From Euglena gracilis (taxonomy: Eukaryota), in the NCBI GenBank assembly GCA_039621445.1, contig CP154954.1, positions 27,927,735 through 27,991,734 of the forward strand: a DNA stretch of 64,000 bases. The letters run 5' to 3'. Numbering within the stretch: position 1 is the stretch's first letter; every line of letters starts with the position of its first letter. Positions 3,748 through 35,900 of this stretch are shown in pieces. Under the pieces are notes generated by a model. It searched no databases and was not told the DNA's origin. It saw only the letters and a program-made list of their open reading frames with translations. Both the position numbers and the translations under genes were made by a program.

Positions 3748-13568
<9,821 letters not shown>

Positions 13569-13920
13569 CCCTCGCTGGTCCTGGCTGCAGCCTGGGCCAC
13601 CGTCCCCCCCCCCCCACGTACCTCGTCAGCATCACTGCACACTGCAGCCCGTCCACCACATTGTGCAAAAACTGTGTGCAAAGATTGCGTTCCGCTGCTT
13701 TGTCAGGCTTCAAACGGGCCTCCATACCATCATCCGACCATTTGGCGCTCTCTCAAAGAAACTGGTCCTTCACTTCCCCCACCATTGCCTTGTGCCAGAG
13801 TATTCAGAGCAGACCTTGCCAGAATGGAGTGCAGGCAGAACCCCCCCCCCTGGGGCTCTGTTTGTTGCCTGTGTCTTACCTCCACGTGCGGCATGATTTC
13901 AAAGGCTCAGCGGGCATCTG

Positions 13921-13948
13921 CTGCCCCCCCTCACTGCAGGTCAGCAGT
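13921..13948 (+). promoter_or_regulatory. Candidate spliced-leader trans-splice (or 5'UTR intron) acceptor upstream of KRI1
   Basis: A pyrimidine-rich run ends in CAG (13937-13939), 9 nt before the ATG at 13949. Euglenozoan mRNAs are SL trans-spliced. Confidence 0.35.
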
Positions 13949-16276
13949 ATGGCTGCCGAGCCCAAGAAGGCTGCACTGCTTGGCAGTGACGACAGTGACG
14001 GGGAGGCGGCGCCGAAGAAGCTCTCGCTGTTCGGCGAGGACGACGACGGGCCGGCCGAGGAGGGGGAGGGGGCGGTGCCCAGCGCCCTCAACTCCCTGCA
14101 AGTTGGCCAGGGCCTGGCAGACCGTTCAAGTTGGGGAAATGGGGACCCAAAGCACGCATGATCGTGCTACGAATGAGCAGTCGATCAATGGGGGGGCACT
14201 CACCACACAACAAACTGGGCCAGAAAAGTTAGCGCCGGCCATAAAGAGACAAGAAGCCTTAGTGCAACTAAGGGGGGGGGGGGGTGGATCAAGAGAATTT
14301 CTCCCACGTTCATGGTGAATTCTAGATACATAGAACTCACAAAACTCATGAAAGTTAAAGTTCATTTTGCAAAGCCATTCATCCCTGATTTACCCCCCAG
14401 TGTTAAAATCTTGGCAAGGTTTCCCTAGGCTTTACGTTGAAGGAGGGTAAATTTCCCCTGCTGCAAAACAATGTTTTGTCAAACAAGTTCACCATAGTTT
14501 TGTCAGCTTCCATCAGCTTTTTGCAAAAATTTTCGTTCCCACCTTTTTTCTCTTTGTGGGGGGGATGGACTTTCTCAGGTACCAGGTAATTCAACAAAGA
14601 AGAAATGAAGCATCAAGTGTGGACCCGTCCAAAATGGTAACCCTGAATCACGCCCTCCACATACACAAATGTTATGTGCAAATGCAATATTTTCATATGT
14701 GTGGTGTGTACAGATGTATATCCATATAAGCACCAGGTTTATTAAAGCTGGCGGGTGCTGGGTTGCGCGCTGGGGTCACAAGAACCGAACTCAATTGTCT
14801 ACAGAAATTTTCTTTTCCCTTCCCAACGGCAACCCACCAGGCCTTGGGGGGGACAAGAAGTATGCCTCAACGCTGCTGCGTCGGAAGCGGGAGCAGGAGC
14901 TGCGGCTGATGAGGCAGAAATTCGGGAACCAGGGGGTTTTCCAAGCCAGTGTGGACCCCACCCTGGGGGGGGGGGCGGCCAGCACCTTTTCCCCAACCAG
15001 CAAGGGAGTCGGTTTTTGGGGGTGTAGTGTCACAGTACACCTCCAGTGCTGATGGCATGCTGAGAGTGGCCATTTCCAAGGGACGTTGACCCAAACTGAC
15101 CCCTTCTCCTGCCGTTGGAGCAACAACCACCCCCAGGCGCCACCTCTCTTTACAGAAAAGCCTGATCACAACCCAGGGCAGCCAGCTGAATATTGCTCTC
15201 CCACCCTCAGATGGTCCACAACAGCCAGCGCCTTCCAGCTGGCCTCTCCCCCTATGGTCCGAAGAAAGCCCCCTGTCAGCGATGCAGGGGATGACGACGA
15301 TGACCTCTCCACAGACGAGACGTCGGACGAGGACGGCTTCATGCTGAGCGACAAGAAGAAGATCGAGATCTCCAACGTGCTGCAGGCAGTCCGGGCTGGG
15401 GGTCAAGGGGCCGCTCGAGGCTCTGTCCGGAAACTCACACAGAATACCCCTGTCTGCTGGGGGGTGGTTCGGCCGCTCAAGCAGGGCAAGGCGTAATCTG
15501 TGACGTCTCCTTTGTTGTTTGAACAGTTTAACGTTTGTTTTCTTTTTGAGCACATTGATAGCGAAGGCCTCAAGTGTTGTCACATCCATTTGCATTTGTG
15601 TGCATTTGTGCAGAAAGGAGTCGCCAGACTGACTGCATAACTTAGCAAGTTGCTCCTTGTGCTAACCCTGTCTCTAAGCACCTGCCATCCCCTCTTCCCC
15701 CTAACAGTTGAGTGGCGCCGTGAGCGTGACACGTCCCGCCTCCAGGAGGAGCGGTTCTTCTACGACAGCGAGTCCGGCAGCTCCACGGATGGTGGGTACG
15801 TCACCGACCCGCAGAAGAAGGGCCGCTACACCGTGAAGTCCCAACTGTGGGACGCTCTCGGGGACGACGAGGACCTGAGCAAGGCCAGCGCCCACCATCC
15901 CTGTGATGAGGAACAGCGAGCACATAGCAAGCTGGCACGGGAGAGAGTGGAAATGGGCAGAGGAATTATCTCCGGCAAATAATTTATACGCTGGAGAAGG
16001 TTGTGTTCACAGTGTCCGCCTGATGTATTGTTAGGCTGTGGCAGTGTGTGTGCGCGCATGCGTGTGTGCGTACATGTGGATCACTGGTGTTGTGTACCGC
16101 CTTCACATGGAAAGTTTGCCCACTGGTCATGGAGAGTATTTCTTCTGTTCTGCCACCATAATTTTTATGGTGACAGAACGATTTTATGGCGACGTGTGGG
16201 ACTGTCTTGCAGCAGACCCACACGTCGCCCCGTACCACCACAACCCCACACTGACAGTCAAAATGATAGACAGACC

Positions 16277-16316
<40 letters not shown>

Positions 16317-19300
16317 GGCAGACAGACAGACAGACAGACAGACAGACAGCAGATGCGACTTGCAACGGCTGCCATCCAATTTTCCCGAATGGTGGGCGGT
16401 GCCGAGGCTCGAAGACCTGGCTCGGACCTATGAGGACCAGGACAGGCAGGGGAACCAAATGATCCCTGCAGCTGAGCGGCAGAAGGCGAAGGAGGAGTTC
16501 CTGGCGCTTGTGCGGGAGGCGGAGACCGGGATGCAGAACTGGTCGCTGAAGGTGTGCGGCAGGGCATGAGCCTTCGCACATTCTCTGGTCGTCATGACGA
16601 GTCGCTTGCCAGCAGGAACAGGCTCCTTGTCAACCCGGAAGACCCCGGCGGGGAGGGACCCTGTCCCAGTCCCCTCGTCAAGAGGGGGTCTGAGTATGAG
16701 CAAGCCCAAGGCACCGAATATTCTCTGAAAAAAAAATGGCCAACGATGACAGGGAAGTGGAGTCCTGCCGACCTGGGTGGGTCCACCATTTCCCAGGGAC
16801 CAGAAAAAGAAGCCTAATTGGGAAGTTGGTGTGACGTGTTTTTCTTCGTCTTATTCAAAGGCACCGCACATTCCAAGCTGCCACGCCCCTCCCAACTCCC
16901 ACAAACACTTGACACCAGAGGGGAGCATGTGCAAAGCAAAAAAAAATCTCCAGGTGAAAACGACGATTTGAAATATTGAAGACGGCACAAAACTACAAAA
17001 AAATTTCGGGTGCACATTTTGAGACCAAGGCCATTGAAGAATAAACAAAAATATGAACAAAATTCACCGATGTGCAGGTAACGCCCCCAGATCCCTCTCC
17101 TTCTTCTAATTATCATTATTTTGGGTTCCTCGCCAGGCTGAACCCAACGCAGTGCAGCCTGCCATCAAGGTTCAAATGGATCCGGAGAGGTGGGAGTGCC
17201 ACACCCCGAGGCTTCAAACCGGAGACTTGCGCCAACGTGATGCCCACCTCGGTGCCGCCGCCCAAGTGCCCAAACGTTTTGGTGCCCAAGCACACAAAGG
17301 TGGGTTGGCCCGTGCCCCGCCACTGTCACAGGAACGGCAGCCCTCGGCAGAGGACGCCGCGACGGCCCGGGAGCTGGACTCCAAGTTCTGGCAGACCCGG
17401 CAGGGGCGGGCGCTGAAGCGGGACCTGGATCGCCGCGTGCAGGCCCGGGCCAAGCTGGAGCAGCTGTTCTCCAACGAGCAGGGCGGGCGGGAACGGCTGC
17501 CCCGCCTCCTTTTTTTGTTGTGCCACATGCAGAGGGGGCTGCTGCACATTTATGCCTTTTGAAGAGGACACCGGAAACCTCATTCTGTCTGGTTCTGGCT
17601 CGTACACCGAGAGCACCCTCAGTGAACTGGTTGCAGCAGCACACGGTTTGATGAATGTCAAAATACAATCATGGGGTGCCTGCAAGACATTTATCTTTGT
17701 CAAAAAAAAAACTTGCACCAGCCTACCCTCATTGCTGACTGCTTGGCATTTCCCAACCCAGGTTGTGCCTGGGACCAGCGGTCCCACTTGCCCTGGCCTC
17801 AGTTCCAAGGATCCCAAGGAGGCATTCCTGAAGAACCAGTGCCCCCCTGGACTGGAAACCTGGGACCACTTCGGGGAGACAAGGTTCCATCCGCCCGGCG
17901 GAAAGATGGTTGTGACATGGGGGGCCCTGCGCCGACTACTTCATAAACGACGGATGGTCGTGGACAAAGGCAACGGAGGAGGCGGAGGAGGCAAAACCGA
18001 AGCGGAGGTCGGCCAAATCCCGAGGGGAGGCGGCCGGCGAGGAGGAGGAAGAGGAAGGGGGCCCAGAAGAACCTCCGGAGGCCCCTTCATCCACTGGCCA
18101 CACCCGAGGTGACTTCGAATGTTCTTGCTGGCAAGGAAGTTTTTTTTTGTTTTTGCAAATTTAATCTTTCATTTTTGTGTCCTGCTCCAGAGATATAGCA
18201 TGGAAATTGGAGAATTCGGAATTAAATTATGATTTGTTCTGTCATCCGATTATTCTTCTTGTTATTGACATGACAACTCCCACCCCTTTATGGGTTGAGC
18301 AGGGGTTGTGTGGAGATTCATACAACTATTTTAAGGCTCATATTTCATCACCCTTGGCAAAGCATCAAAAGCTGAAGAAATCTGATAGAAGGGAGAGGAA
18401 GGGAAGCACTGCCAGCTAAGCAAATGTATGTGAGGAAGGAGATATGCAATATTTTGTTCTGTTTCTTGTTTGTTTCAAATATGGTGCTCATTTCTTTTCT
18501 GGCTAAAAATCCTCTTTGTTCACCACCTCACGTGTGCTTGGGAGGACGAGGAGTTCACCAACAACCAAGAGGTTTTTGAACATGCATATGAAGAGTTCAA
18601 GTACCACCACCAAGAAGAGGTATATGTGGCCTTTTGTTCACAGTGGGTTTGCACAGGGGAGAGAGTATGCAAGTTGCATAAGTTGCATCTGTTTTGCACA
18701 ATACAAATTCTGGATAATTTTCTTTTTTTTTGCACAGTTTTCATTTTTTTTTGCACAATGAAAATGTTGGAACGTGTGCATTTTTTGAACATTTTTTTTT
18801 GTGTTTTGACCCGCCATTCTCCAAAATTTTCAATGTTATTTCACAGGGAAATCTTCTACCTCATCAGAATCACATGCGTCAAATCAAATCACAGGCATCA
18901 TGAAGTTGCATACACCAAATCAAATCACAGGCATCTTGAAGTCACATACACCAATTTTTGTATTTGTATTTTCAGTTGTTGCATCATGAAAATGGGTGAA
19001 TGCAATTGGGCAGGCAACCGTGGCACTATGCAAGTTTGCATCACGCTTGCTTTTGGTGGACAATTTTTTCTATGGTTCCTTCTTTTTCGTATTTTTTTCA
19101 AAATAAATGTGGAAACGCTTTTGTTCATGCTTCCGTGCTTTTTGGTGGATAAAAGTTCGAATGATTGTTCAAAATGTGCACTGTGTTGCAGGATGAAAAA
19201 TGTTGCATAATGAAAAATAGCCCCTGGCGCAGATGAAAGATTTTCTCCACCAGCCTACCCCTGCTGATTTTACATGTTGGGAAGTTGCCATTTTCGCTCG

Positions 19301-22300
19301 TATTTGATGACTCGTCAGAAAAAAATTCCTAAGATAAGGAAAGCAACATGGTTGGCCTGAATGCCTTCCAGCTAGGATTGGGCCTCACAGTTCTGAGATT
19401 GAAATGCCCCCCCCATTTTCTCAATTTGCTCGCTGGACAGGTGGAATCCGCCATATTATTGAAACATTGGCCATCACAGGAAGTAGTGTACAGTCTGACT
19501 TTTTTCAAAAAAGGTTGGTGAGATGGCAAATCCTTGAGAGGACAGGCTCAAAGGAAGTTGACAGCGACAGGCAAGACACAGGGAGAGGAGGTTCACTCCA
19601 ACTGGAACACCAATGCAAAGCCTTAGTTAATTTCCCCTCTGAACCGTTGTTGGGGATGCGAGCAAACTTTTTTTCACCTTTGAGTTTCCTCATTTCCAAA
19701 TTTAACTTGACAGTCTAAAGTTTAAACTTGAACGCTTAAAGTTTAAAGTTTAAAGTTTTTTTTAAACGACCCAGGGACCCAGCGTGGGCAGTTGGGCCTG
19801 GCCCGACCAGGCTTCTTTTTAACTTGGAAGACCCCCGGGCCGGGGCCAGACCCCCCAGGGGCTCCTGGGCCAGAGGCCCAGGCGTGGGTTTCAGTGCGAA
19901 TGCGACCGCCAATTTTTTTTTGGAAAATGCCCTTAGACGGCCCGATTGGGGTGGTCCCCACCAGGGGTCTTAAAAAGAAGCCTGGGCCCAACCCCTGGGG
20001 CCGGCCTGGGTGGGGGTTTTGGGGCAAAAAAAACTGCCCAGGTGACAGTTGATGGGGGGGTGCAAATCGGGGGGGGGGGCAACAAGGCAGCTCAAGGTAT
20101 GCAAAATGTGCAAAAGGGTGCAAATTATGAGAAAGGTGCATTTTTTTGAAAGGGCCCAAAGGGCCCAAAACCGACCCTCCCGGGGGGTGGGGGGTGTCTG
20201 GTATGGGCAGGAACCCCATGCCAAGGCACCCCCGGGCTTGTCAAAAGAAGCCTGTGCGCACCCCTGCACAGGCTTCATAGTCTGCTGGGCTGCCTTCCCA
20301 CTGGGGTCCACAGGGCTTCACGGAGCAGATTGCGGCGCCGCAGATGGGGCCCAGCCTGCGGCGCAAGGAGTCGGCCCGCAAGAAGCGGCGGGAGCTGCAG
20401 GCAGAGAAGGAGGCAGAGCGGGAGCGCACGTTCCAGGAGGAACTGAGCTCAGGCGACCCCTGGAACGTGATTGATGGTGGACTGCGCTGACGAGTGTGTG
20501 CATGAGGGGGGTTACATATGTGTCTGTCGAGCGGGTATTTGTGGGTTGTGCACATTGCGTGTTGTGTGTTGTGCTGTATGTCTACTATGTTGCGTGTGAA
20601 ATTGAACAGTTTGTGTATTGCAAGGGTCTCATGGCGCTGCCGCGTGAAGATGCAGAAGAAGAAAGCATTGCAAGAGAAGTCAGCCCTGCTGAAGGAGATT
20701 GCGGGCGCCAAAAGCCGAAAGCCACTCATACAGTGTCCGTCTGTATGTATTAATGCGCATATTGCTGGACCGCAAAATAAATAATAAAGGTTCATAATTG
20801 GCGCACTGGGTTACCTGAACTGGGAAAAAGTGTCATGGGCAATTTATTTCAGCGCCTTTTTGTTTTGTCAATAACAGTGGCCTCCGCAAATTTTTCTGCA
20901 TTTCAACATGTTGTGGAATGTCCAACGCTGCAGAATTTACGGGGGCAAAGGAGAGGAATATGAAATTGTGTGAAGGGCTGCGGTCAGGCTTTTGCTTAAG
21001 GACCCGGGGGGGGGTATTGGCTAGCCAATCGGCTAGACACTGGAAAAAGTGGACTAGCTAGACCCCCCCTCCCCCAGGGGGGGGGTCCGGGGGTCCCCCG
21101 GACTGGAAAAAAATTTTCCTCCGGCGCACAGCGCCAGAGGAAAAATAAGGTTTTTAACAGGTTTTTGGCTGATTTTGTTCCAAAAATTCCCAAAAATGGC
21201 CAAAAACGGGCATTTTTTGGCCATTTTTGGGGGTCCCAAAAAAAATTTTCGGCGCTTCGCGCCGGTCACTGGAAAAAAAATTACACTAGCTAGCTCTGCT
21301 AGAAAACCCACTAGCCAAATTTGGACTAGCTGCAGTCCAGCCCCCCCGGGGGGGGGGGGGTACTGCAATCCCTTAAGCAAAAGCCTGGCTGCGGTGCACT
21401 GGCGGAGGAGCCGGACCCCGAGCCAAGCGATGGGTCGCCCCGGCACAGAGTGGGTCTCGCCCGCAAGGACCGCTTCTCGGCGGACCTCCTGCACAAGATC
21501 CGCCACGCCTCCCTGGAGGAGTACGACCAGCTCATGTCGCAGGTGTTCAACGACGACTATTACGAGGAGGCGGACACCGTGCAGGGCCCCGCTGAGGGCC
21601 GAGCAGGGCCCCAGAGGCTGCATGGGCGAAAACGATGGTTCCAGTCATTTGGCACCCGTCCAGGTCATTTCCTTTTTCGGGGGAACATAGACACCCCGAA
21701 GTCATAACCCCCTACCCCCCCCCAGTCGTACGACCACCCCTCATTTAGGACCACCCCCCGGTCACAGGTTGCAGGTTATGGAGGTGTTACGACCCCCCCC
21801 CCCGGTCACAGGTTGCAGGAACCCGGTTATATGACAAGGGGGGGGCGGGTAATAGTGCTGCGGGGCCAATAGAGCTGCAGGTCCAAATAGTGCTGCACCC
21901 CCCGCCGGATGAAGCGAGCGTCCAATAGTGCTGCACCCCCCCCAAATCACAGCAATGTGAAATGCGTAGAAGCTGGTGCAGCCCACTGCAGCACCTTTTT
22001 TAATCCGCAGAGAGGGGAAAGGGGGCAAATTCCCACCCGAACAACTCACAGAAGTCGTCCGAAGATGAACCACACAACCTCACCAGCCTCAGACAAGGAC
22101 ATTGAGCAGACAAATAGGGTGCCTGTGGTGATAGGTCGGGACTAAGAGGCACCCAGTCCAATAGCACCCCCACCGCGGGAGGCGGCCGTCCAATAGAACT
22201 GCGGGTGCAATACTATTTGGGGGGTTTACACACAAAATTGCGCACAGATATGTCACCCTCATATCAAACGACCACCCTGTCAAGCGATCATCCCCTCTGA

Positions 22301-25300
22301 TCAGAGAACCCCTTTCAGGAGGATTTTTCGTGTTTCAGGGAAGCCGAGTATCCCTCTGCAGCGATCACCCCCAATCAGAGGACAGACAAGGTTGTCTGCT
22401 GCGTGCTGAACACTTCAGGCGCATGCTGACTCCTGTCCTGGCGGCACCCTGGCAGGAATTTCCACCCGGAGGCCGAGGACTGGGCAGAGCAGCCGGAGCT
22501 CCGCAAACTGCTCGGCACGGATGCGTCTTGGGAGAAGCGCCAGCTCGTGGCATCTGTGTTCAGTGAGACCCCGACGGCCACGGAGGCCGCAAGCACGCAG
22601 GCTGATGGGCCAGCGTTGGCCAGAGCAAAGGTTTGTTGGATGCTGAAGGAAGGATGTGCGTGGGAACGACTGCCAAATCACGTCCATTTTCAAAAGTGTT
22701 ATCATGTTGTGCCAACCGTCCCCTACTAAAACTCAGAATTTTCTCCAACGCCATTATGAAGATGTTTACCAAACCAAATTCGCCAAGTCTGTGGCAAATG
22801 ATCTTTCGGACCGCCCTGCCTTAGACCAGAAGGTTTGGACCCCCCAACTGAGCACAGGAACGCACGAGGAAAGGGCATTTCGCGGCACAGGGGTGGTAGG
22901 TCACGGGAGGTGGGGTGGTCGTTGGTTGGGTCGCGGCCGGCCGCGGCACCTGCCTCCCATAAACCAACCTCCCGCGAGTCCCCATCGGGACTGGATGTCC
23001 GGCGGTGATGGTCCCGCCTCTGCCCACTGCGGCCCCTCCGGGCCCCCACCCTGGCCGCAGCAGCGGCGGCGGGGGCAGAAAGGCGCCGGCCGGGCCGCAG
23101 GACTCCGACAGCGACAGCGACGGGGACGATGCGGGGCGGCGGCGGCGGCGCACGGTGAGCAAGGAGACGCTGCAGCGGCAGCTGGAGGAGGAGGCCAGGG
23201 CGGGGGGGGGAGGGGGAGGGGCTGGCCGGCGGTGGCCGGATTGCATTTGCCATGGCCCCACTGGACCTGTTTGAGGGTCTCTTTTGACGATTTTAGCAAA
23301 TGGCGGATGCCTGTCGCCGTCAGCTCGCCTTGGGTAACGCAAAATGTGGGTTTATTCTGGTTTCTGACCCCTCCCATGTGAAGACCCCCAGCTTGAAGCA
23401 GGATTTCAAGACCCGCATGCAAAAATCAAACGTCCCTGCACATGGTTTGGGGGTTTTATATTGGGGGGTTTCCTTGGAATTTTCCCTTCCTTTCTTCTTT
23501 GTAGAAGTTGAACTGGATATTTTATCCCACACCAGCATTCATGGCCGAGAGGGGAACTTAAAAAAAAAGCTCTCAGCGGCCCTCACACACGGTCTTCCTC
23601 TTTGAGGATGGATACAATTTGCGCCAAACCCCCCCAGTCCTGCCAGAGGTACAGTACACCCAGAAGGAGATAGACGAGCTGGGGTACGAGGATGTCATTG
23701 CGGGTGGCACCGTGAAGTGCCGCTTCAAGTACCGCGGCCATGCCTCGCCCTGGGAGTAGTGCGGCTGTATTTGAACCACTGGGTCGTCAACTCACTCGGT
23801 TGTTTCAGTCGGAGTGACGGTCTCCCAGTCAGCCGCTGCTCAACCTCCCCACACCTGGGGCCACACACACGGCGAGGGCGGCGCATGCTCTCAACATCGA
23901 CCCCATCCGCTTCGAGGGGCTGGACACCACTGACCTCCTGCCAGGGACCCTGCCTCTGTGACCCCTTCGGGGGTCAAACTCGAGATCGAACACAATCTGC
24001 GTACCTCTCTCTCTCTCTCTCTCTCTCTCTCATCTCCGTATGTCCACAGATCCACCAATCCATCTCTCCGTCCGTCCGCCCGTCAGTCCGTATGTTGTTC
24101 CAGCCAGCCAGCCAGCCATCCAATCCCATCCATCCTATCCATCCATCCATCCTCACAAATTTTCCCCCCCAGAGGCCCCGGTGGTACAACGTGCGGGTGG
24201 GTTCGGGTAATTTTCTTGCTGACCGTGATTGTGCGCCTTCTGCCATTTATTGTGTTCAAGATGGGATTAGGATAAGGTGGTTTGTATTTAGGCTGAAAGT
24301 TAGGCTCTCTTTGTCATTTTTGACCAAATTTCAACCTAATTTTTAGCCAAATGTGTTGACTGAACAGTTTATCTCCCAAACAACCCCCCCCCCCATAGAT
24401 GCACACACATACACATCCGCACAAGGAGTGGATTTCCCACCCGGCCGGTGGGGAGGTCCGGCCGGGTCCCCAACGCGGTGCTGCCAGATGCCACGCTGGA
24501 CTCCATCGCCCCGATGCGGTACCTCGCAGCACACCGCACAAAGGCGGAGCGGGATCGGGTCCAGGCTTCTTTCTAATGAAAAGGGTGAACCCCCCCGGGG
24601 ATGCTGTGGGCAGGCAGGGGGCAGACAGGGGTCGACCCCCACCCACCCCACCCATGGGTAGAGGGGATTCCCGTACAGCCCCCCCCCCCTCCCACCCTGG
24701 GTTGGCAAATAAAGAAGCCTGACGGGGACCGGCGCATCGTGGAACAGCGGCTGAAGCGGCTGGGGCAGGTGGACTACAAGTGGAAGGTCGGCAGCAAGAA
24801 GTACAAGAAGGCCTCCGGCATCAGCCAGGGGGCGTTGGTGTGGCGGGCCGCCTCCCGCCCCCCCCCCCCAAATACCCACCAAGACCCACCCTTGGGATTT
24901 ACACAAACGTCCTGAAAATTCCCCCCATCAAGGTGGTTCAAGATGCATAGAGCATTAAGTTGTCCCAAATGTGACCCCGCCCCCATCGGTTGAACTGCAC
25001 CGACAAAGGATCTCTGTTTCAAGTTTTTCAGTAGCGGTCTGCCCATTTGCAACCCCTGAAACAAGTCGTCAGAAGCGACATTTGAGGTTTGCATGTGTTG
25101 TCCCCTCCCCCCGGCCCCTGACCCCCGACCCCGCGACGTGGGATGAGCTGCAGGCCAAGCTGGACCAGCTCAAGGCGGAGAAGGCCGCGAAACGCGCCCG
25201 CCTGGCGGCGGAGGCGGCGGAGGGGGAGGAGGGGCCCGCGGAGGCGGAGGACGGCTACGCCGCCGACGTGGGGGAGCCGGCCCCGCCCCGGACCAAGGCC

Positions 25301-25740
25301 AAGGCGAAGCGGCCCCGGGAGGTGGGCGGGGCTGAGCTGGGGCCTCTGATGCGGTGGGGGTGGTGTGGCAACACGCACAAAACCTCCGGGACGTTCCAGA
25401 GCTGATCGACTCATACTCACAACCATGCATGTCCTTTGTTTCCCGCCCAAGTTGCATCCAACCGTTGAAACATCCACCCACCAGCCACCAACTGCGTCAC
25501 TGGCAGACCGCAACTGTCACCGGCAGAGCGGGAAAATCGGCATCCGGGCCGGCCCCCAAGGTTCCAAAAAACCACTGCTGAGGTTATTTGTGAACATCGC
25601 TTTTTGTATTTTGTTGGGGGTGGGAAGGCCCAGCCCCGCTGATGGTGGACACAGATCAGGTTGCTGCCGAAGCTGTCCAACAGAAGGAGAAGGAGAAAGG
25701 GCGCAAGCAGAAGAAGCACAAACCAGAAACCTCTGCCTGA
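13949..25740 (+). CDS. KRI1: KRI1 (40S ribosome biogenesis protein), about 20 exons
   Basis: Exons 13949-14104, 14852-14926, 15281-~15400, 15708-15882, 16407-16551 and further exons up to 24727-24822, 25127-25321 and 25659-25740 (TGA). Motifs match KRI1 N-terminal, middle and Kri1_C regions: LQV|DKKYASTLLRRKREQELRLMRQKFG, EDEEFTNNQEVFEHAYEEFKYHHQEE, SLRRKESARKKRRE, EEYDQLMSQVFNDDYYEE, LGYEDVIAGGTVKCRFKYR|NIDPIRFEGLDTTDLL. Confidence 0.9.
14105..14851 (+). other. Non-conventional intron (KRI1 intron 1)
   Basis: ggc-CAGGGCCTGG pairs with CCAGGCCTTG-ggggg; no GT/AG ends; joins LQV|DKKY. Confidence 0.85.
14927..15280 (+). other. Non-conventional intron (KRI1 intron 2)
   Basis: aac-CAGGGGGTTTTC pairs with GAAAGCCCCCTG-tcagc; joins KFG|DAGDDD. 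Confidence 0.85.
16267..16349. repeat. (CAGA)n microsatellite
   Basis: Read directly from the sequence. Confidence 0.95.
19808..19984. mobile_element. hAT-type MITE inside an intron
   Basis: 15-bp TIR CAGGCTTCTTTTTAA/TTAAAAAGAAGCCTG; TSD GGCCCGAC/GGCCCAAC (7/8). Confidence 0.85.
20985..21387. mobile_element. hAT-type MITE inside a KRI1 intron
   Basis: Perfect 17-bp TIR CAGGCTTTTGCTTAAGG; perfect 8-bp TSD GCTGCGGT (20977-20984, 21388-21395). Confidence 0.92.
23736..23892 (+). other. Non-conventional intron with CAT/ATG end pair
   Basis: ggc-CATGC...GCATG-ctctc; joins the conserved motif RFKYR|NIDPIRF. Confidence 0.8.
24559..24726 (+). mobile_element. hAT-like MITE (24562-24721) that constitutes a KRI1 intron
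   Basis: Perfect 11-bp TIR CAGGCTTCTTT/AAAGAAGCCTG, the same TIR as the MITE at 19808. Flanks ATCGGGTC/ACGGGGAC match at 5/8. Removal joins ERDR|DRRIVE. Part of the interior recurs at ~59285-59340. Confidence 0.8.
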
Positions 25741-26581
25741 GGAAGAAGGTGCGGCGGACTGAACGCCCACTCCACTACCTCCTGGGGCAGCTAACCCACC
25801 TCAACCTCCCACATTCCCTCCCGCACAGTCCCTCCCACCCTGACTCTAACACCCTAACACCAGAGCGTTGGGATATCATCCTGGCGTAGTTTATGCACCA
25901 CGCCTCTTCCATCTCTCCAACCCCTGTCGTGCTCCTGTGCACGTGCACACATGTGTGGGTGACAGGGCTGCAAGCGTCAAATGGGGAGGAATATCGCCAT
26001 TTTGAGCCACGCCGAGGTTTAGTTTTTGTCTCTGTCGTGCTGCCACATTTTTGGGTACCGCCCCCTGAGAGATTGCAATATTAATTAGGACATGGGAACA
26101 TATTTAATGACTTGAATTGCTAGATTGGAGAAGGATGGATGTCTGATGGAGGTTTTGACGGCTGCCCCCCCCCCCGGAGAGGACCAAACGGGGGGATTCG
26201 GTCCCCCCCCATCCGCCCCGAGGCGACCCCCAACGGCCGCTACTCCGAACAGGTGTGGGGACGCCGCCTTATTGATGCTTTAAAGCATTAAGCCCCCGGT
26301 GTAATCCGGGTCTTGAATTGGTGGCGAAAAGCAAACTCCCTCCATAAAGTGCCCACAACGAGGTATTAGCAGCGTCGATGAATATAACCTGTTTATCATG
26401 ATCCAGTTATAACTTAATAATAATAAGTAACCCCCCCCCCCAAATAATACCCATGCGCCCCATGCGTTTGAGAAGATGACTTGGTCTCTTCATTTCCCTG
26501 GGTTTTCGCGCTCCCCACTGGAGGTGCCCATGAGAAATGTCTGGTGCAGCAGGCCTACTCTTGGTCCAAGGTGGCGCATGG

Positions 26582-27592
26582 CGGTAGACTGGGGGGGGGG
26601 GGTAGTGGGTAGTGGGTAGTCGACCGACTAGTCGGCCGACTACCCAATTGGTCGGCCGACTAGTCGGCCGACCAAATGGTCGGTAGCTAGTCGGTACATT
26701 AGAGTGGGTAGTCGGCGGACTAGTCGGCCGACTACCCACTCTAATGTACTAACGGGTCCAAACCACCGACTTTTAAGCCCCCCCCCATGAAGAAAATCCA
26801 ATGCAAACTAGTCGGTGGCTAGTCGGTGGTCATAAAAATGGTCTGTGGCGGGCCCAAATCACCCGGAAATGGTCCGGATGGGTCCAAATAAGTGCCTTAC
26901 ACCTAAATAAACACCCCCAGATGGAAATCTTTGGTCGGTGGGGGTCGGTGGGCCCTTGATGGGGGTCTCGAAGGGTGAAAAACCAATGATAAAACAAGGA
27001 TTACATGAAAATCCTTTAGAAATGCAAGCATTCTGCATCACGAGAGGCAGAAACCCCCCCTACACCCCCATCAGAGCCTCAAATAACAAAATCCCTTCTG
27101 TGTTGGCGACATACTCGGGGGCTAAGTCGTTTTTGTGGCTCACTTTGGCATAGGCGGGGGGGGGGGGCTCGCCCCCCCCCCCCCCGCACCCCCCCATCAA
27201 ATAACAAAATCCCTTCTATGTTGGCAATAGACTTGGAGGGATAAGTCCTTTTTGTGCAAATTTTGACTTATATTGAAAATCCAATGGGGAGAGGTGTTCT
27301 TTTGTCAAAAGTGGCCCAAAATGGACATCCCCCCCAATTTTTTTGCATATCCCCCCCCCCCCAATTGGGGGGTTCTGGAGCCATTTGGGTGGGTTTTGAC
27401 TGGTGTTGAGGTGATTTAGACAAAAGTTTTTTCCCGGGGGGGGGGGGGCTTAAAAGTCGGCGGTTTTGACCCGTTAGTACATTAGAGTAAGCTAATGTAC
27501 CGACTAGCTACCGACCAATTGGTCGGCCGACTTGTTGGCCGACCAATTGGGTAGTCGGCCGACTACCCACTACCCCCCCCCCCAGTCTACCG
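26582..27592. mobile_element. Foldback-like non-autonomous element with long (~150-200 bp) modular TIRs
   Basis: Starts CGGTAGACTG(n)TAGTGGGTAGT and ends ACTACCCACTAC(n)AGTCTACCG. The arms are built from GTCGGCCGAC/CGACTAGTCG palindromes and TTTTAAGCCCC/GGGGCTTAAAA. Confidence 0.85.
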
Positions 27593-27634
27593 TTTGGCAC
27601 TGTCCAAGGTGAAGGTTTGGGTTAATTGAATTGA

Positions 27635-27820
27635 TAGGGTTAGGGTTAGGGTTTGGGAATGGGGTTAGGGTTGGGTTTAGGTCGTTTAACCCAGATTTAG
27701 GCTAAAATTAGACCAAATTCAGGCCAGAATTTAGGCCCGATTTCGGCCCAACTGCCTAACTCTGGCCTAACCCAACCCTAATCCCCTTCTGAACGAACCG
27801 CAACCCTGACCCTGCCCCTA
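27635..27820. repeat. Degenerate interstitial TTAGGG-like repeats in inverted arrangement
   Basis: TAGGGTTAGGGTTAGGG... at 27635-27681 and CCTAACCC/AACCCTAA/ACCCTGACCCTG at 27766-27820. Confidence 0.55.
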
Positions 27821-29162
27821 AAAATAACGGAAATCACCGAAGGAGTAGTAGTTAAAGGCTGCCTCATCAACCTCTCCCAGGTGGGTCGATTTCTGCCTGG
27901 CAGAGGAGGACAAAGAGATTTTCGGATTGATGGATTGTACCATTTTCTTGGAAAGGACAGTTTGACAGATTTTTCAGCCCTAACGTACATTGGGACCAGG
28001 TTGCTGCTTTGAGAAATGCAATGCACAAAAGGGTCATGTGAGGATGATGGACGTTTGAAGGAGTTGAAGCCGCTCTGTATTTTGCAACTTGGGCCGCTTC
28101 CCAGCAGTTCGCCTTCTGCCACATTATGCTGCGGACGTTGTCGGCTTGACGTTGCGTGGCGGAGCGAGCAAGCGGGATATCACACGAGGTGCGCTCCGCG
28201 ACGCGATACAACACCTTATGGTATCGTTGTTGGAACCTGACCCACAACAAATTGCAATAAATAATAGCAGCACCCAAGGAGTTGTTGATGGTTTTTAAAA
28301 GTGGAAAGCAATGGGAAAATGAAAGGATCAGTTTTTCACACAATTTCGTACGATCATGCATATGTTGCTCATCAGATTGCTCCCTGGTCTGATGAGCAAT
28401 CCCTGACTTTTCACATCCCTTCCGCTGACCAACCTACCGAAATGAAAAACCAAGGTGGGTTTCTGGGGGAGGCTCATGCGCCTGTTCTTTCTAGGGGATC
28501 ACTCATATGGCGAGGGAGGTAGTGGGCTCTCTGCTCTATATGGGTCCGATGTAGGATAGTTCTGACTTTGGGTGATGTTCCGCAGTTTGTTTGATGTTCA
28601 GGATGGGAGTGAGGGTTCTGGTCGGATTTGGAGCAGGGTTCAAGAGAGGTGGGGTTACGTTTGGAATCGGGTTTGCGAGGTGTTTTCTACTAATTTTAGC
28701 CTAAATTTAGCATTTCTTTCAGTTCTCAAAACAGTTGATTAAAACCTGACCCCAATTTCACCTAAGAACCCAATAAAGTGTGATGAAAGTGCCAAATCCA
28801 GATATTCACAGTTGTGCTCCATGCATCTTGAATCCACCACAACCCTTCAGTTGACGACCCAACAATGGCTTGCACCTCCACATGTCTGTTGTTTAACAAC
28901 ACGCCAAAAAAGAGAGAATTGAAATATCATCTGTTTTATTTTTTCCACCCTCGGATCCCCTCCCCATCGACAAGTTTTGATTTGTGTCCAGCTGAAGAGC
29001 AACGGTAACAGTATTTTTTTTGCTTCCGGTGCAGAAATTTGGCAAAAGGGCAAAAATGGGTGGGAAATGGACTCTCCGTCTGTGTCAAATTATGTTTTAA
29101 GGAACGTTTTTACATCATTGGCAGTCTTTTTTGGCATTTTTACATTTTTCGATTTTTTTTTA

Positions 29163-29407: not shown

Positions 29408-29703
29408 CAGGCTTGTGCTTAGTCGGGTGCCTACCCCACAGGGGGGGGGTGCTAGGGGCAGGCACCCCATAGCACCCGATCCGACCCCCCCCCCCGGGGG
29501 GATAGGGTTTTGGGGGGTGCCTGCCCCTAGCAGGCACCCCCCTCCGACCCCGGCGCCGGGGGCCCGGAAACGGCCATTTTCAATGAAAATTTTCTCAGTC
29601 CGGCCTGGACCCCTATCCCCCCGGGGGGGGGGTGTGCCTGCTAGGGGCAGGCACCCTATAGCACCCACCCCCCCTCCCCCCCCATTTGGTAAGCACAAGC
29701 ATG
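29408..29703. mobile_element. hAT-type MITE
   Basis: TIR CAGGCTTGTGCTTA/TAAGCACAAGCATG; perfect TSD TTCTCAAC (29400-29407, 29704-29711). Confidence 0.9.
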
Positions 29704-30899: not shown

Positions 30900-32879
30900 C
30901 CGCACTGCCGTCGGGTGGAGGGGGTTGGGGCGGCGGCGTGGCTGCCGCCAGCACCCGCAAAGGCACCCTCAGCCCTCTGCCCCAGGGGGCCCAGCCTGCC
31001 TGTGTTGCCGGCCGCATGAGGTGGGGTAGACCAACCACCTGACCATGTGGGGATGGATGTGTTTGTTTCTTCCCCCCCCCCACCGCCTCCCTGCAGCTGA
31101 GGCTAGGACATAACAACCAGATGGTGATGAAAATGCAGTCGTCTAACTCAATTCCTATCGAACATTTTTAGAACCGAGATCTATTCAAACCAGAGTGACA
31201 CCATCGTTTTCTCGGCCTCTTTCTGGCTGCGGTGGGGAGCGTTCTCTCTGAGGGGTTTGCATCGATGGAGTGTCTGTGTAAAGTTGAGGAAAGTTGTGCT
31301 GTCATTTCTATTCATGGTTTGTCATACTCGACGGGAACCTGTAAAAACGATAAACGGGCAGTCTGGTCTGCCTGGGCCTGAAGCGACTGATTCGTCGAGA
31401 TTCCACCCACCGCAGTGAACAAGAGGCTGCTGCATCACCGCTCAGTGGTACCCTCCTTTCACCATGCATGCATCTTTAAACGCTGTAATAACTCCTCACG
31501 GGTGCACATCGTCCTACCTCCCCCCCTGCATGTGTCCAACAAACACCCTTGTCCAGCAACCCCCGCCCTTATTTGGACGGTAACTTTTTGTCACCGTAAG
31601 TGGAATTTTGCTTGTTCAGAACCCCTTTTTGTCCGATGTTCGCTCCTCTTGTTTGGACCACCACTTTTGTCATTTATGTGCTTGTTGGACGCAGAGGGGG
31701 ACTGGTAAATTGCCCCCCCCCCAAATAAGTGCGCACCCCTGGAGGACCCAAACCTTCCTCCCTGGTGCTCGTCATTTTTGCAGTGCTGCGACACAAAATG
31801 GCTTTTGATTTCAGAGGGCATTTTGACAGTCATTTAAACCACAAGAAAGGGGGGAAATAATGAAAATGGGTGAAAATCATGTGGGTCATGTGTTTTTTTT
31901 ATTACTTTGTTAATAAGTGCACACCACCAAGGGCTTCGAATCTTGTTCTTATGAAGTTTGCACTGATGCATTTATTGGTGGTAGGTTGGGCTTGACATTC
32001 AGTACCAGAATTACAGAGAAGTCAAAATACTATCAGATGGGGCGTTTTGAGTTCCAGCTTAAGTTCTGAACTTTTTCTTTGTCAATGTTTTCTTTGCTTT
32101 TGCTTTTCAGAATATTCCTTTGATTCCATACAACAATCCAATGCTGCGCCACATGCCGTGTTTTTGTTGCTTTCTTTGCACAGAAAATTGGTATCTGAAC
32201 ATGCGTGTCACGCTCTCTGTCGTTGTGTTCTGCTCTGCTGAGGTGCTGCCAACTGCAGCACCTCCAGCATTGTGACCCCCTCCCACCGTCTGACAAATTG
32301 ACCCTCCCCTGCTGGGCCCTGAAGGTTATCCCAAGGCCTTGTCGTTCCCCGGCTGACCGGAAAATCGTTTAAGGCTCCCTCAAATATGCTTGGGTGTCTT
32401 AAAAAGGGTGTCTTAAAAATACTCCGTCCCCCCCCGGGGGGGTATCCGTAGGAGGAGGCTCGATATCGAACGCTCGACCTCGAGCCTCCTCGAACATTTT
32501 TAAGCCCCCCCCCCTCTAGGGGGGGGGGCTTAAAAGGCGTTCGAGGAGGCTCTAGAGCCTCCTCGAACCATGTTCGAGGAGGCTCTAGAGCCTCCTCGAA
32601 CGTGGTTCGAGGTCGTTCGAGGAGGCTCTAGAGCCTCCTCGAACGTGGTTCGAGGACGTTCGAGGAGGCTCTAGAGCCTCCTCGAACGTGGTTCGAGGTC
32701 GTTCGAGGAGGCTCTAGAGCCTCCTCGAACGTGGTTCGAGGTCGTTCGAGGAGGCTCTAGAGCCTCCTCGAACGTGGTTCGAGGTCGTTCGAGGAGGCTC
32801 TAGAGCCTCCTCGAACGAAATCTCGAGCCTCCTCCTGTGTATATGCTTCACCGTATCAGGAGACTGTGCTTCTATTTTC

Positions 32880-32934
<55 letters not shown>

Positions 32935-35900
32935 CTGTGTGGTTTTGGGATGCTTACTGCTGGTGCATCTCCATCTTTGCTCCTTTGTTGTTTGCAAATT
33001 TAATGACTGCGCCTGCCTGCCTGCAAAATTTGTTCACCTGCAGATAAAACGAGTTTATTTTGTAAATGAAAGGGATAGGGTTAGGTCGACTTGCACCCGA
33101 GAAGGGGTTGGCGGATAAAAGGGGTTTATTTTGTTAATGAAAGGGATAGGGTTAGGTCGATTTGCACCCGAGAAGGGGTTGGCGGATAAAAGGGGTTTAT
33201 TTTGTTAATGAAAGGGATAGGGTTAGGTCGACTTGCACCCGAGAAGGGGTTGGCGGATAAAAGGGGTTTATTTTGTTAATGAAAGGGATAGGGTTAGGTC
33301 GACTTGCACCCGAGAAGGGGTTGGCGGATAAAAGGGGTTGGCGGATAAAAGGGGTTTATTTTGTTAATGAAAGGGATAGGGTTAGGTCGACTTGCACCCG
33401 AGAAGGGGTTGGCGGATAAAAGGGGTTTATTTTGTTAATGAAAGGGATAGGGTTAGGTCGACTTGCACCCGAGAAGGGGTTGGCGGATAAAAGGGGTTTA
33501 TTTTGTTAATGAAAGGGATAGGGTTAGGTCGACTTGCACCCGAGAAGGGGTTGGCGGATATAAAAGGGGTTTATTTTGTTAATGAAAGGGATAGGGTTAG
33601 GTCGACTTGCACCCGAGAAGGGGTTGGCGGATAAAAGGGGTTTATTTTGTTAATGAAAGGGATAGGGTTAGGTCGACTTGCACCGAGAAGGGGTTGGCGG
33701 ATAAAAGGGGTTTATTTTGTTAATGAAAGGGATAGGGTTAGGTCGACTTGCACCCGAGAAGGGGTTGGCGGATAAAAGGGGTTGGCGGATAAAAGGGGTT
33801 TATTTTGTTAATGAAAGGGATAGGGTTAGGTCGACTTGCACCCGAGAAGGGGTTGGCGGATAAAAGGGGTTGGCGGATAAAAGGGGTTTATTTTGTTAAT
33901 GAAAGGGATAGGGTTAGGTCGACTTGCACCCGAGAAGGGGTTGGCGGATAAAAGGGGTTTATTTTGTTAATGAAAGGGATAGGGTTAGGTCGACTTGCAC
34001 CCGAGAAGGGGTTGGCGGATAAAAGGGGTTTATTTTGTTAATGAAAGGGATAGGGTTAGGTCGACTTGGGCGGATACCCGAGAAGGGGTTGGCGGATAAA
34101 AGGGGTTTATTTTGTTAATGAAAGGGATAGGGTTAGGTCGACTTGCACCCGAGAAGAGGTTGGCGGAAAAAAGGGGTTGGCGGATAAAAGGGGTTTATTT
34201 TGTTAATGAAAGGGATAGGGTTAGGTCGACTTGCACCCGAGAAGGGGTTGGCGGATAAAAGGGGTTTATTTTGTTAATGAAAGGGATAGGGTTAGGTCGA
34301 CTTGCACCCGAGAAGGGGTTGGCGGATAAAAGGGGTTTATTGTGTTAATGAAAGGGATAGGGTTAGGTCGACTTGCAGACGAGAAGGGGTTGGCGGATAA
34401 AAGGGGTTTATTTTGTTAATGAAAGGGATAGGGTTAGGTCGACTTGCACCCGAGAAGGGGTTGGCGGATAAAAGGGGTTTATTTTGTTAATGAAAGGGAT
34501 AGGGTTAGGTCGACTTGCACCCGGGAAGGGGTTGGCGGATAAAAGGGGTTGGCGGATAAATGGGGTTTATTTTGTTAATGAAAGGGATAGGGTTAGGTCG
34601 ACTTGCACCCGGGAAGGGGTTGGCGGATAAAAGGGGTTGGCGGATAAAAGGGGTTGGCGGATAAAAGGGGTTTATTTTGTTAATGAAAGGGATAGGGTTA
34701 GGTCGACTTGCACCCGGGAAGGGGTTGGCGGATAAAAGGGGTTGGCAGAGAGAGAGAGACTCACAGATGGAGAGATCAATTTGAAAATTGTTTTCCTGGA
34801 CTCCTGATACCCAGATGTATGTACGTAGGAGGAGGCTCTAGAGCCTCCTCGAACCTCCTCGAACCACGTTCGAGGAGGCTCTAGAGCCTCCTCGAACGTC
34901 CTCGAACCACGTTCGAGGAGGCTCTAGAGCCTCCTCGAACGTCCTCGAACTACGTTCGAGGAGGCTCTAGAGCCTCCTCGAACGTCCTCGAACTACGTTC
35001 GAGGAGGCTCTAGAGCCTCCTCGAACGACCTCGAACATCGTTCGAGGAGGCTCTAGAGCCTCCTCGAACGATGTTCGAGGAGGCTCTAGAGCCTCCTCGT
35101 ACATTGTTCGAGGAGGCTCTAGAGCCTCCTCCTACGGAGCCTCCTCCTACCGTAACCCTCCCGTCCCCCCCCCTCACAAGGAACAATTTTCGGGTGAATC
35201 AGAAGACAATAAGCAGAAAAAAAAATCCACAAAGTCGTGTTTCCTGATAAACAGGAACATTCAATTGTTATGAATTTATGAAAAATAATGCATTTAGCAC
35301 CAAATTGCTCAGGGAACGGGTAAAACGATCTATCGACGGGTTTGGGTACTGCAGAGGGTGAGGGCTTTCGAGAGGGTAGCTTTGGGGCGGAATTTTGAGG
35401 GGGCCAATGTATTTCCATCCCCCCGCATCCGTTGCTGCACAGGTACTCCGGCCCCTGCCAGCCCATTTCAGGTCGCCCCACTTCCGGGCCCCGAAAGTGG
35501 TGTGCCCCACAGTCGCTTCCCATTCACCAACCCGGGGCCAATGTGGCGATCTTTGTCCATATTATACTTACAACCTGGTGTGGATTGGCTTTTGGACCCA
35601 TTCGCAATGACTGAGTGTATGTCACGCCCCCACACATCCTAAATATAACCCTTATTCTTCGACACTTCAAATATCAGCCCCCACCCCAATTGTGAAGCCC
35701 CCAACCCAAGTTTGCTTTGGAAGGTGTGGTGTGACGTTCTTGTACGTAAGTTGGATTTTTGCAGGTGGATTGGTTTCATTCACACGGTGGGTAAAAACTG
35801 AGAGGTGGACAAAGGGAAATCAGTCTGGCGATGGTGATCCACTTCAATCGAATAAAAGGAATGCCCACCGAGGCATCACGCAAAGTTTGATTGACAGCCC

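Follow-up and report, generated by a model that had tools for sequence, protein, structure and literature searches.

Intron 16 of the KRI1 gene of Euglena gracilis, a nonconventional (non-spliceosomal) intron at positions 24559-24726 of the DNA analysed here, probably began as an inserted DNA transposon, small and non-autonomous, that had CAG...CTG terminal inverted repeats (TIRs) and made an 8-bp target duplication. The DNA is a 64,000-nucleotide stretch of contig CP154954.1 (GenBank assembly GCA_039621445.1, positions 27,927,735 to 27,991,734 of the forward strand); this whole stretch is referred to as the window, and coordinates are counted from its first letter. Intron 16 and a non-exonic element lying 4.6 kb upstream of it have identical ends over 11 bp. 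The ends and elements of this type in the window are as follows (features given without a strand carry none):

24562-24572: left TIR of the intron element, CAGGCTTCTTT, exact match.
24711-24721: right TIR of the intron element, AAAGAAGCCTG, exact match.
19808-19984: 177-bp element resembling a MITE (miniature inverted-repeat transposable element), with the same TIR (15 bp perfect) and flanks GGCCCGAC / GGCCCAAC identical at 7/8 positions, in GT-AG intron 9 (18620-20313).
16619-16816: degraded copy of 198 bp, ends CAGGCTCCTTG / AAAGAAGCCTA, flanks identical at 5/8 positions, in GT-AG intron 5 (16552-17331).
20244-20254: solo right end AAAGAAGCCTG with related subterminal sequence, exact 11-mer match.

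A first-pass annotation of this DNA had held that the intron core, 24562-24721, and a separate MITE at 19808-19984 share a perfect TIR. The shared 11-bp TIR and both sets of coordinates are borne out: the same CAGGCTTCTTT pair is present at 19808-19818 and 19974-19984. "Separate" needs qualification, as the second element does carry the TIR but, rather than being intergenic, sits in GT-AG intron 9 of KRI1 itself. On both strands of the window CAGGCTTCTTT has five exact matches, four of which form two inverted pairs while the fifth is the solo end at 20244-20254; in 100 dinucleotide-preserving shuffles the mean count was 0.06 and the largest was 1, and none (0/100) reached five. When one mismatch or fewer is allowed, there are six matches against a shuffle mean of 1.89, and 2/100 shuffles reach six. 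The intron element spans 160 bp including its perfect 11-bp ends and is small and non-coding, which is the structure of a MITE. The element at 19808-19984 folds as a long hairpin (z -2.91; 2/200 shuffles), and its interior is homologous to that of the degraded copy at 16619-16816, with an internal alignment score that 0/500 shuffles reach.

Identical ends might also come about if selection for a good CAG...CTG stem had produced the same 11-mer independently in elements of no shared ancestry. CAG, CTG and adjacent pairing are needed for splicing of nonconventional introns (PMC12501133), and, read by eye, 8/16 of the nonconventional introns of KRI1 start with CAGG. Convergence of this kind is nevertheless extremely improbable. 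For two elements to agree at eight more bases in each arm is far beyond chance, the non-exonic copies are not under splicing selection, and the 11-mer occurs in 0 of the other 15 nonconventional introns of KRI1.

All CAGGCTTCTTT-type ends in the window, comprising three elements and one solo end, fall within the KRI1 gene, between 16619 and 24721, and the two non-exonic elements occupy its only two GT-AG introns. Such confinement may be due to reinsertion close by or to some preference for genes. No convincing left partner was found for the solo end at 20244-20254; a candidate at 18928, with two mismatches, is at noise level. When metagenomes were scanned for the two ends at a spacing of 130-160 nt, 18 loci were returned (L001-L018; GC 0.41-0.58). 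Judged from the ends, the inverted repeat runs outward beyond the 11-mer in 16/18 of these, and ten read AAAGGGGT-CAGGCTTCTTT...AAAGAAGCCTG-ACCCCTTT, nine of the ten being from one assembly. By blastn they show no likeness to the window elements except for one 19-nt run. With their longer palindromes and this lack of likeness, the metagenome loci were judged unrelated to the Euglena elements and are probably bacterial palindromes.

The identity of the gene rests on a transcript-derived protein. A search of a protein collection with the exon upstream of intron 16 gave, among 32 candidates, one such protein, P0001 (EG_transcript_3819, 755 amino acids), with Pfam matches to Kri1_C (E 1.6e-12, residues 561-634) and Kri1 (E 4.1e-7). 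Nineteen pieces of P0001 align to the window by tblastn, with identities of 86-100%, and together they span 13949 to 25737. Because P0001 matches in these 19 pieces and carries the Kri1 domains, the gene is, as judged by sequence, KRI1 of Euglena gracilis or that of a very close relative, and the earlier designation of 24559-24726 as a KRI1 intron holds on the strength of the two Pfam matches. Single exons were too short for Pfam and PDB-sequence searches, Kri1_C reaching at best E 0.11. The gene and the parts of it that border intron 16 are:

13949-25737, + strand: KRI1 gene (coding part), from P0001 tblastn and splice mapping, RNA-run joints and Pfam.
24478-24558, + strand: upstream exon, ending ...VLPDATLDSIAPMRYLAAHRTKAERDR, with 100% identity to P0001 residues 600-626.
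24559-24726, + strand: nonconventional intron 16, 168 nt, GTC / CAG...CTG / ACGGG with the next exon starting in G, from splice mapping, protein junction and an in-frame TAA.
24727-24822, + strand: downstream exon, DRRIVEQRLKRLGQVDYKWKVGSKKYKKASGI, from the P0001 junction and match.

Splice mapping against P0001 places the intron at 24559-24726 with 0 mismatches, CAG standing at +4 and CTG at -8. The protein reads ...AHRTKAERDR/DRRIVEQRL... across the junction, and the flanking exons match it at 100% and 97%. Within the intron an in-frame TAA lies at 24574-24576, and read-through is ruled out because of it. Intron 16 is therefore removed from the mRNA, a conclusion based on the transcript-derived protein across the junction and the in-frame stop, not on reads. 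The junction GATCGG/GACCGG put forward in the first-pass annotation is accordingly upheld at the codon level by the protein, but not by RNA reads.

Because of a GGG repeat, intron 16 can be written in four equivalent registers, from 24557-24724 through 24560-24727, with borders GG..CG, GG..GG, GT..GG and TC..GG. A GT start thus occurs in 1/4 and an AG end in 0/4, and with no register ending in AG the intron falls outside the GT/GC-AG class to which spliceosomal introners belong. The single GT register would suit the older label "intermediate/nonconventional", and the intron had been called an intermediate type on account of its GT; the label adds nothing here, and a 5' GT in such introns is described as no sign of kinship with conventional introns (PMC4770533). 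The published nonconventional code consists of spacers of 3 nt and 5 nt, CAG and CTG, a purine, and required pairing (PMC12501133). Intron 16 reads GTC/CAGGCTTCTTT...AAAGAAGCCTG/ACGGG followed by G, a purine, at 24727, and so agrees with the code throughout: 3-nt spacer, CAG, paired stem, CTG, 5-nt spacer, purine next. Its ends are paired in the minimum-energy fold, with 11 bp perfect. Intron 16 is a regular member of the nonconventional class, its ends fitting the code exactly. An Rfam search over 13000-27000 gave three sub-threshold matches, none of them within intron 16.

In KRI1 as a whole 19 introns were mapped, of which only introns 5 and 9 are GT-AG (16552-17331 and 18620-20313) and 17/19 are nonconventional; several of the latter, for example 7, 15, 17 and 18, depart from strict 3/5 spacing. 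Reads placed on the window came from runs X15, X21 and X24 (two raw RNA runs and one probable RNA contig set) and from DNA run X1, and 15 of the 462 joints from this placement were listed. Among the 15 are eight KRI1 joints from the RNA runs. The joints 15392>21562 and 16495>25158 are long skips with one side anchored by just 20-22 nt, and one of the two has 24 other letters between its sides; these are likely reads of other loci or paralogues rather than splicing. No back-joint of the kind expected for a circular product was seen at intron 16 among the listed joints.

The evidence for a target duplication comes from setting the k bases that precede an element against the k bases that follow it, with k taken from 2 to 12. 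At intron 16 the two putative copies are:

24554-24561: ATCGGGTC, putative 8-bp target duplication, left copy; 5/8 positions agree with the right copy, and k=8 is the best length.
24722-24729: ACGGGGAC, putative 8-bp target duplication, right copy, from the same flank comparison.

Flank identity is best at k=8 in all three copies, with 5/8 for the intron, 7/8 for 19808 and 5/8 for 16619 (17/24 in total). The first-pass annotation had reconstructed a target, ATCGGGAC, differing by one nucleotide from the left flank and by two from the right. That count is correct but partly circular, because the left copy supplied five nucleotides of the target and the right copy the other three; the independent figure is the 5/8. 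In each of the five elements compared, both flank copies have a purine at position 6. Among the listed joints in DNA run X1 there was no empty-site joint.

Direct repeats at the junctions of intron 16 would also be left if the intron had been captured during double-strand-break repair at an exon break, a route proposed for the E. agilis gapC intron, whose 8-nt repeats were read in that way (PMC4770533). As an account of intron 16 this is very improbable. Break repair does not predict a repeat of constant 8-bp length across unrelated sites, nor does it predict identical 11-bp inverted ends at separate loci.

A census of the window extends the 8-bp observation beyond the CAGGCTTCTTT-type elements. 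The window contains 85 inverted repeats, 10 nt or longer and 60-1500 nt apart, that begin with CAG and end with CTG, against a mean of 30 and a maximum of 43 in 30 shuffles. Their 8-bp flanks agree at 7/8 or better in 3/85 cases, where 99 offset controls gave a mean of 0.04 and a maximum of 1, and at 6/8 or better in 5/85, where the controls gave a mean of 0.77 and a maximum of 4. Flanks with one mismatch or none occur in three cases at k=8 and in none at k = 6, 9, 10 or 11; k=8 alone stands out. The three strong cases are 20985-21387 (8/8), 10461-10902 (7/8) and 19808-19984 (7/8). With other end trinucleotides, flanks of 7/8 or better occur in 51/12,290 cases, 35 of the 51 from CCT-starting ends; these 35 are taken to be tandem arrays near 32.5-35 kb. 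A palindromic unit of 43 bp (GTTCGAGGAGGCTCTAGAGCCTCCTCGAAC...) is repeated in tandem at 32539-32817 and 34823-35136. Three further elements outside the CAGGCTTCTTT group have such ends and flanks:

20985-21387: 403-bp element, nested in nonconventional intron 11, whose related TIR of 17 bp is CAGGCTTTTGCTTAAGG and whose 8-bp duplication, GCTGCGGT, is perfect.
29408-29703: 296-bp element with TIR CAGGCTTGTGCTTA (arms 13/14) and a perfect 8-bp duplication, TTCTCAAC, from inverted repeat and flanks.
10461-10902: 442-bp element with TIR CAGGGCGTTGC and flanks GTCCTACC / GTCCTGCC identical at 7/8 positions, in non-coding-looking DNA.

By eye, some 11-12 of the first 15 positions at the ends of the elements at 20985 and 29408 agree with the end of the element at 19808. 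The two elements also share ends with one another (13/14, CAGGCTT[T/G]TGCTTA), and "family" as applied to them means a TIR family only. Loose read ends fall exactly at 29408. The 640-nt bins that hold 20985-21387 and 29408-29703 have a summed word depth of about 650,000-955,000 in DNA run X1, where most bins have about 70-180, which suggests a very high-copy repeat. Very high DNA-run word depth is also found in bins at 13741-14381, 21433-22714 and 26561-27842, where loose ends of reads are numerous (14226, 14276, 21341, 21360 and 27195 among them); these are short high-copy segments, partly runs of G or C, in or beside introns. Around 10461-10902 there are (TG)n microsatellites and open reading frames (ORFs) without a Pfam match. 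A second gene, on the + strand, is indicated at 55652-58073 by ORFs that contain WD40 repeats (E 3.9e-11 and 1.6e-8).

The reverse direction of descent has also to be considered, in which the nonconventional intron was the source and the copies in GT-AG introns were made by intron mobility with no DNA transposon, whether by reverse splicing of an excised circle and reverse transcription or by local gene conversion. Excised nonconventional introns do form circular RNA (PMC11282704, PMC12501133), and the whole set of CAGGCTTCTTT-type ends, three elements and one solo end, lies in one 12-kb gene of a 64-kb window. Three features nonetheless make an intron-first origin highly unlikely. The flanks of the non-exonic copies agree best at 8 bp (7/8 and 5/8), which reverse splicing does not predict; these copies stop at their TIRs, not at the intron borders, which lie 3 and 5 nt further out; and elsewhere, at 29408 and 10461, there are elements of related ends that have 8/8 and 7/8 duplications.

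Several results weigh against a transposon origin of intron 16. The paired ends of an intron are selected for splicing, so that their conservation says little about age. Beyond the ends, the likeness of the intron 16 interior to 19808-19984 is marginal (16/500 shuffles reach the score), and its interior and that of 16619-16816 are not alike (190/500 shuffles); intron 16 shares essentially just the ends with the other copies. The fold of the whole intron is no more stable than that of shuffles (z +1.03; 173/200 fold as well). Its own flanks agree at just 5/8, a figure that is weak alone and that, by hand arithmetic, arises by chance about 6% of the time. When the 16 nonconventional introns of KRI1 are pooled, intron 16 included, there is no 8-bp signal, identity being 44/128 = 0.34 at k=8 and 0.22-0.38 at other k. 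A census without the CAG anchor is not enriched, with 9/699 flanks at 6/8 or better against 5-18 in offset controls, although in such a census the register is lost wherever flanking bases chance to pair. The interiors of the elements at 20985 and 29408 are not alike (111/200 shuffles reach the score). Of 57 ORFs with at least 180 amino acids, 44 were scanned and gave no transposase domain, the other 13, inside KRI1, having been left out. Finally, the joint 24558>24727 is absent among the 15/462 joints listed from the RNA runs, which thus give no read-level proof of splicing. The MITE-derived intron gain proposed in the first-pass annotation draws its support from the shared TIR, the best fit of the flanks at 8 bp and the enrichment of CAG...CTG ends with 8-bp flanks, but little beyond the ends is shared.

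If intron 16 did begin as a transposon, the steps of its origin may be pictured as follows. The element would have inserted into a KRI1 exon at the target ATCGGGAC, after which the hairpin formed by its two ends would have been recognised by the nonconventional splicing machinery. By cutting 3 nt ahead of CAG and 5 nt beyond CTG, this machinery would then remove the element together with 3+5 = 8 nt. Because 8 nt is one copy of the duplication, the reading frame and the message of the gene before insertion would be restored. The intronic parts of the duplication would have drifted later, GAC to GTC and ATCGG to ACGGG.

From this arithmetic we infer a link between the splicing code and the duplication, one that was not met with in the consulted passages of the cited literature. 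The model fits the eight-nucleotide direct repeats of the E. agilis gapC intron (PMC4770533). A pyrimidine/purine consensus has been reported at both ends of introns (PMC11282704), and the model fits this as well, as the two ends would derive from the same target position. A wider proposal, quite possible but offered tentatively, is that the nonconventional splicing code is the direct imprint of one class of transposon with CAG...CTG ends, from which most Euglena introns descend. If that is true, such an element landing in an exon, in either orientation, would be removable from RNA on insertion and would take precisely one duplicate with it, while a single position of the duplicated target, position 6, would supply both the purine that opens the intron and the purine that opens the next exon.

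The superfamily of the transposon is probably hAT-like, a view that relies on the 8-bp duplication and the CAGG start. Against the usual hAT end motif, the element end CAGGC fits at 4/5 positions, and hAT membership is not established by this. Non-autonomous hAT elements such as Ds of maize make 8-bp target duplications, have TIRs of about 11 bp starting with CAGG, and tend to reinsert nearby. The KRI1 elements are alike in the putative 8-bp duplication and the short CAGG TIRs, and nearby reinsertion would fit their clustering in one gene; unlike hAT systems, they come with no transposase or autonomous copy seen among the 44 ORFs scanned. Ds acting as an intron is cited in PMC3935182. The Merlin transposons described from Euglena gracilis have 5'-GG ends, TIRs of at least 24 bp and duplications of 8-9 bp (PMC8101967). 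The KRI1 elements agree with these in duplication length, but their ends start with CAGG and their TIRs are 11-17 bp, which makes Merlin the poorer fit.

The introners of Micromonas and other algae offer a parallel in which small TIR transposons have turned into introns, the duplication helps to define the excised unit, and the mRNA is restored (PMC11282704). Introners are removed by the spliceosome at GT/GC-AG borders and have duplications of about 3 nt, whereas removal of the KRI1 intron is nonconventional, with no AG end and a putative duplication of 8 bp. A closer comparison is intron 4 of gapC in E. agilis strain ACOI 323, recently gained, which is likewise a nonconventional intron with eight-nucleotide direct repeats (PMC4770533). 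It lies in another gene of another species, its repeats were read as break repair, and the excerpt drawn on describes no related non-intronic copy. Compared with euglenid nonconventional introns generally (PMC3935182, PMC4770533, PMC12501133), intron 16 has all the traits, including a junction that can slide by virtue of direct repeats, and there is no difference in kind; what is added is the non-exonic elements with identical 11-bp ends and 8-bp flank repeats. No Euglena element family with both intronic and non-exonic copies was found in the literature consulted, a search that most subscription journals lay outside.

The proposal that nonconventional introns come from MITEs dates from 2013 (PMC3935182), and it recurs in papers of 2016, 2024 and 2025 (including PMC11282704 and PMC12501133). 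In 2025 the origin was still called unclear, and nonconventional introns are reported to make up 71.8% of the introns of E. agilis (PMC12501133). The KRI1 intron is a concrete instance of this published hypothesis and not a new kind of intron. The MITE idea has so far been based on inverted ends and short junction repeats, to which the window adds non-exonic elements whose ends are identical to those of an intron, related elements that have clear 8-bp duplications, and the 3+5 = 8 link. Together these make the question of origin directly testable, as it can be put to counts on existing assemblies and to the published knock-in assay (PMC12501133). KRI1 is a ribosome-assembly gene, and the ends that one of its introns shares with elements outside exons are concrete support for the long-standing view that the nonconventional introns of Euglena started as mobile DNA.

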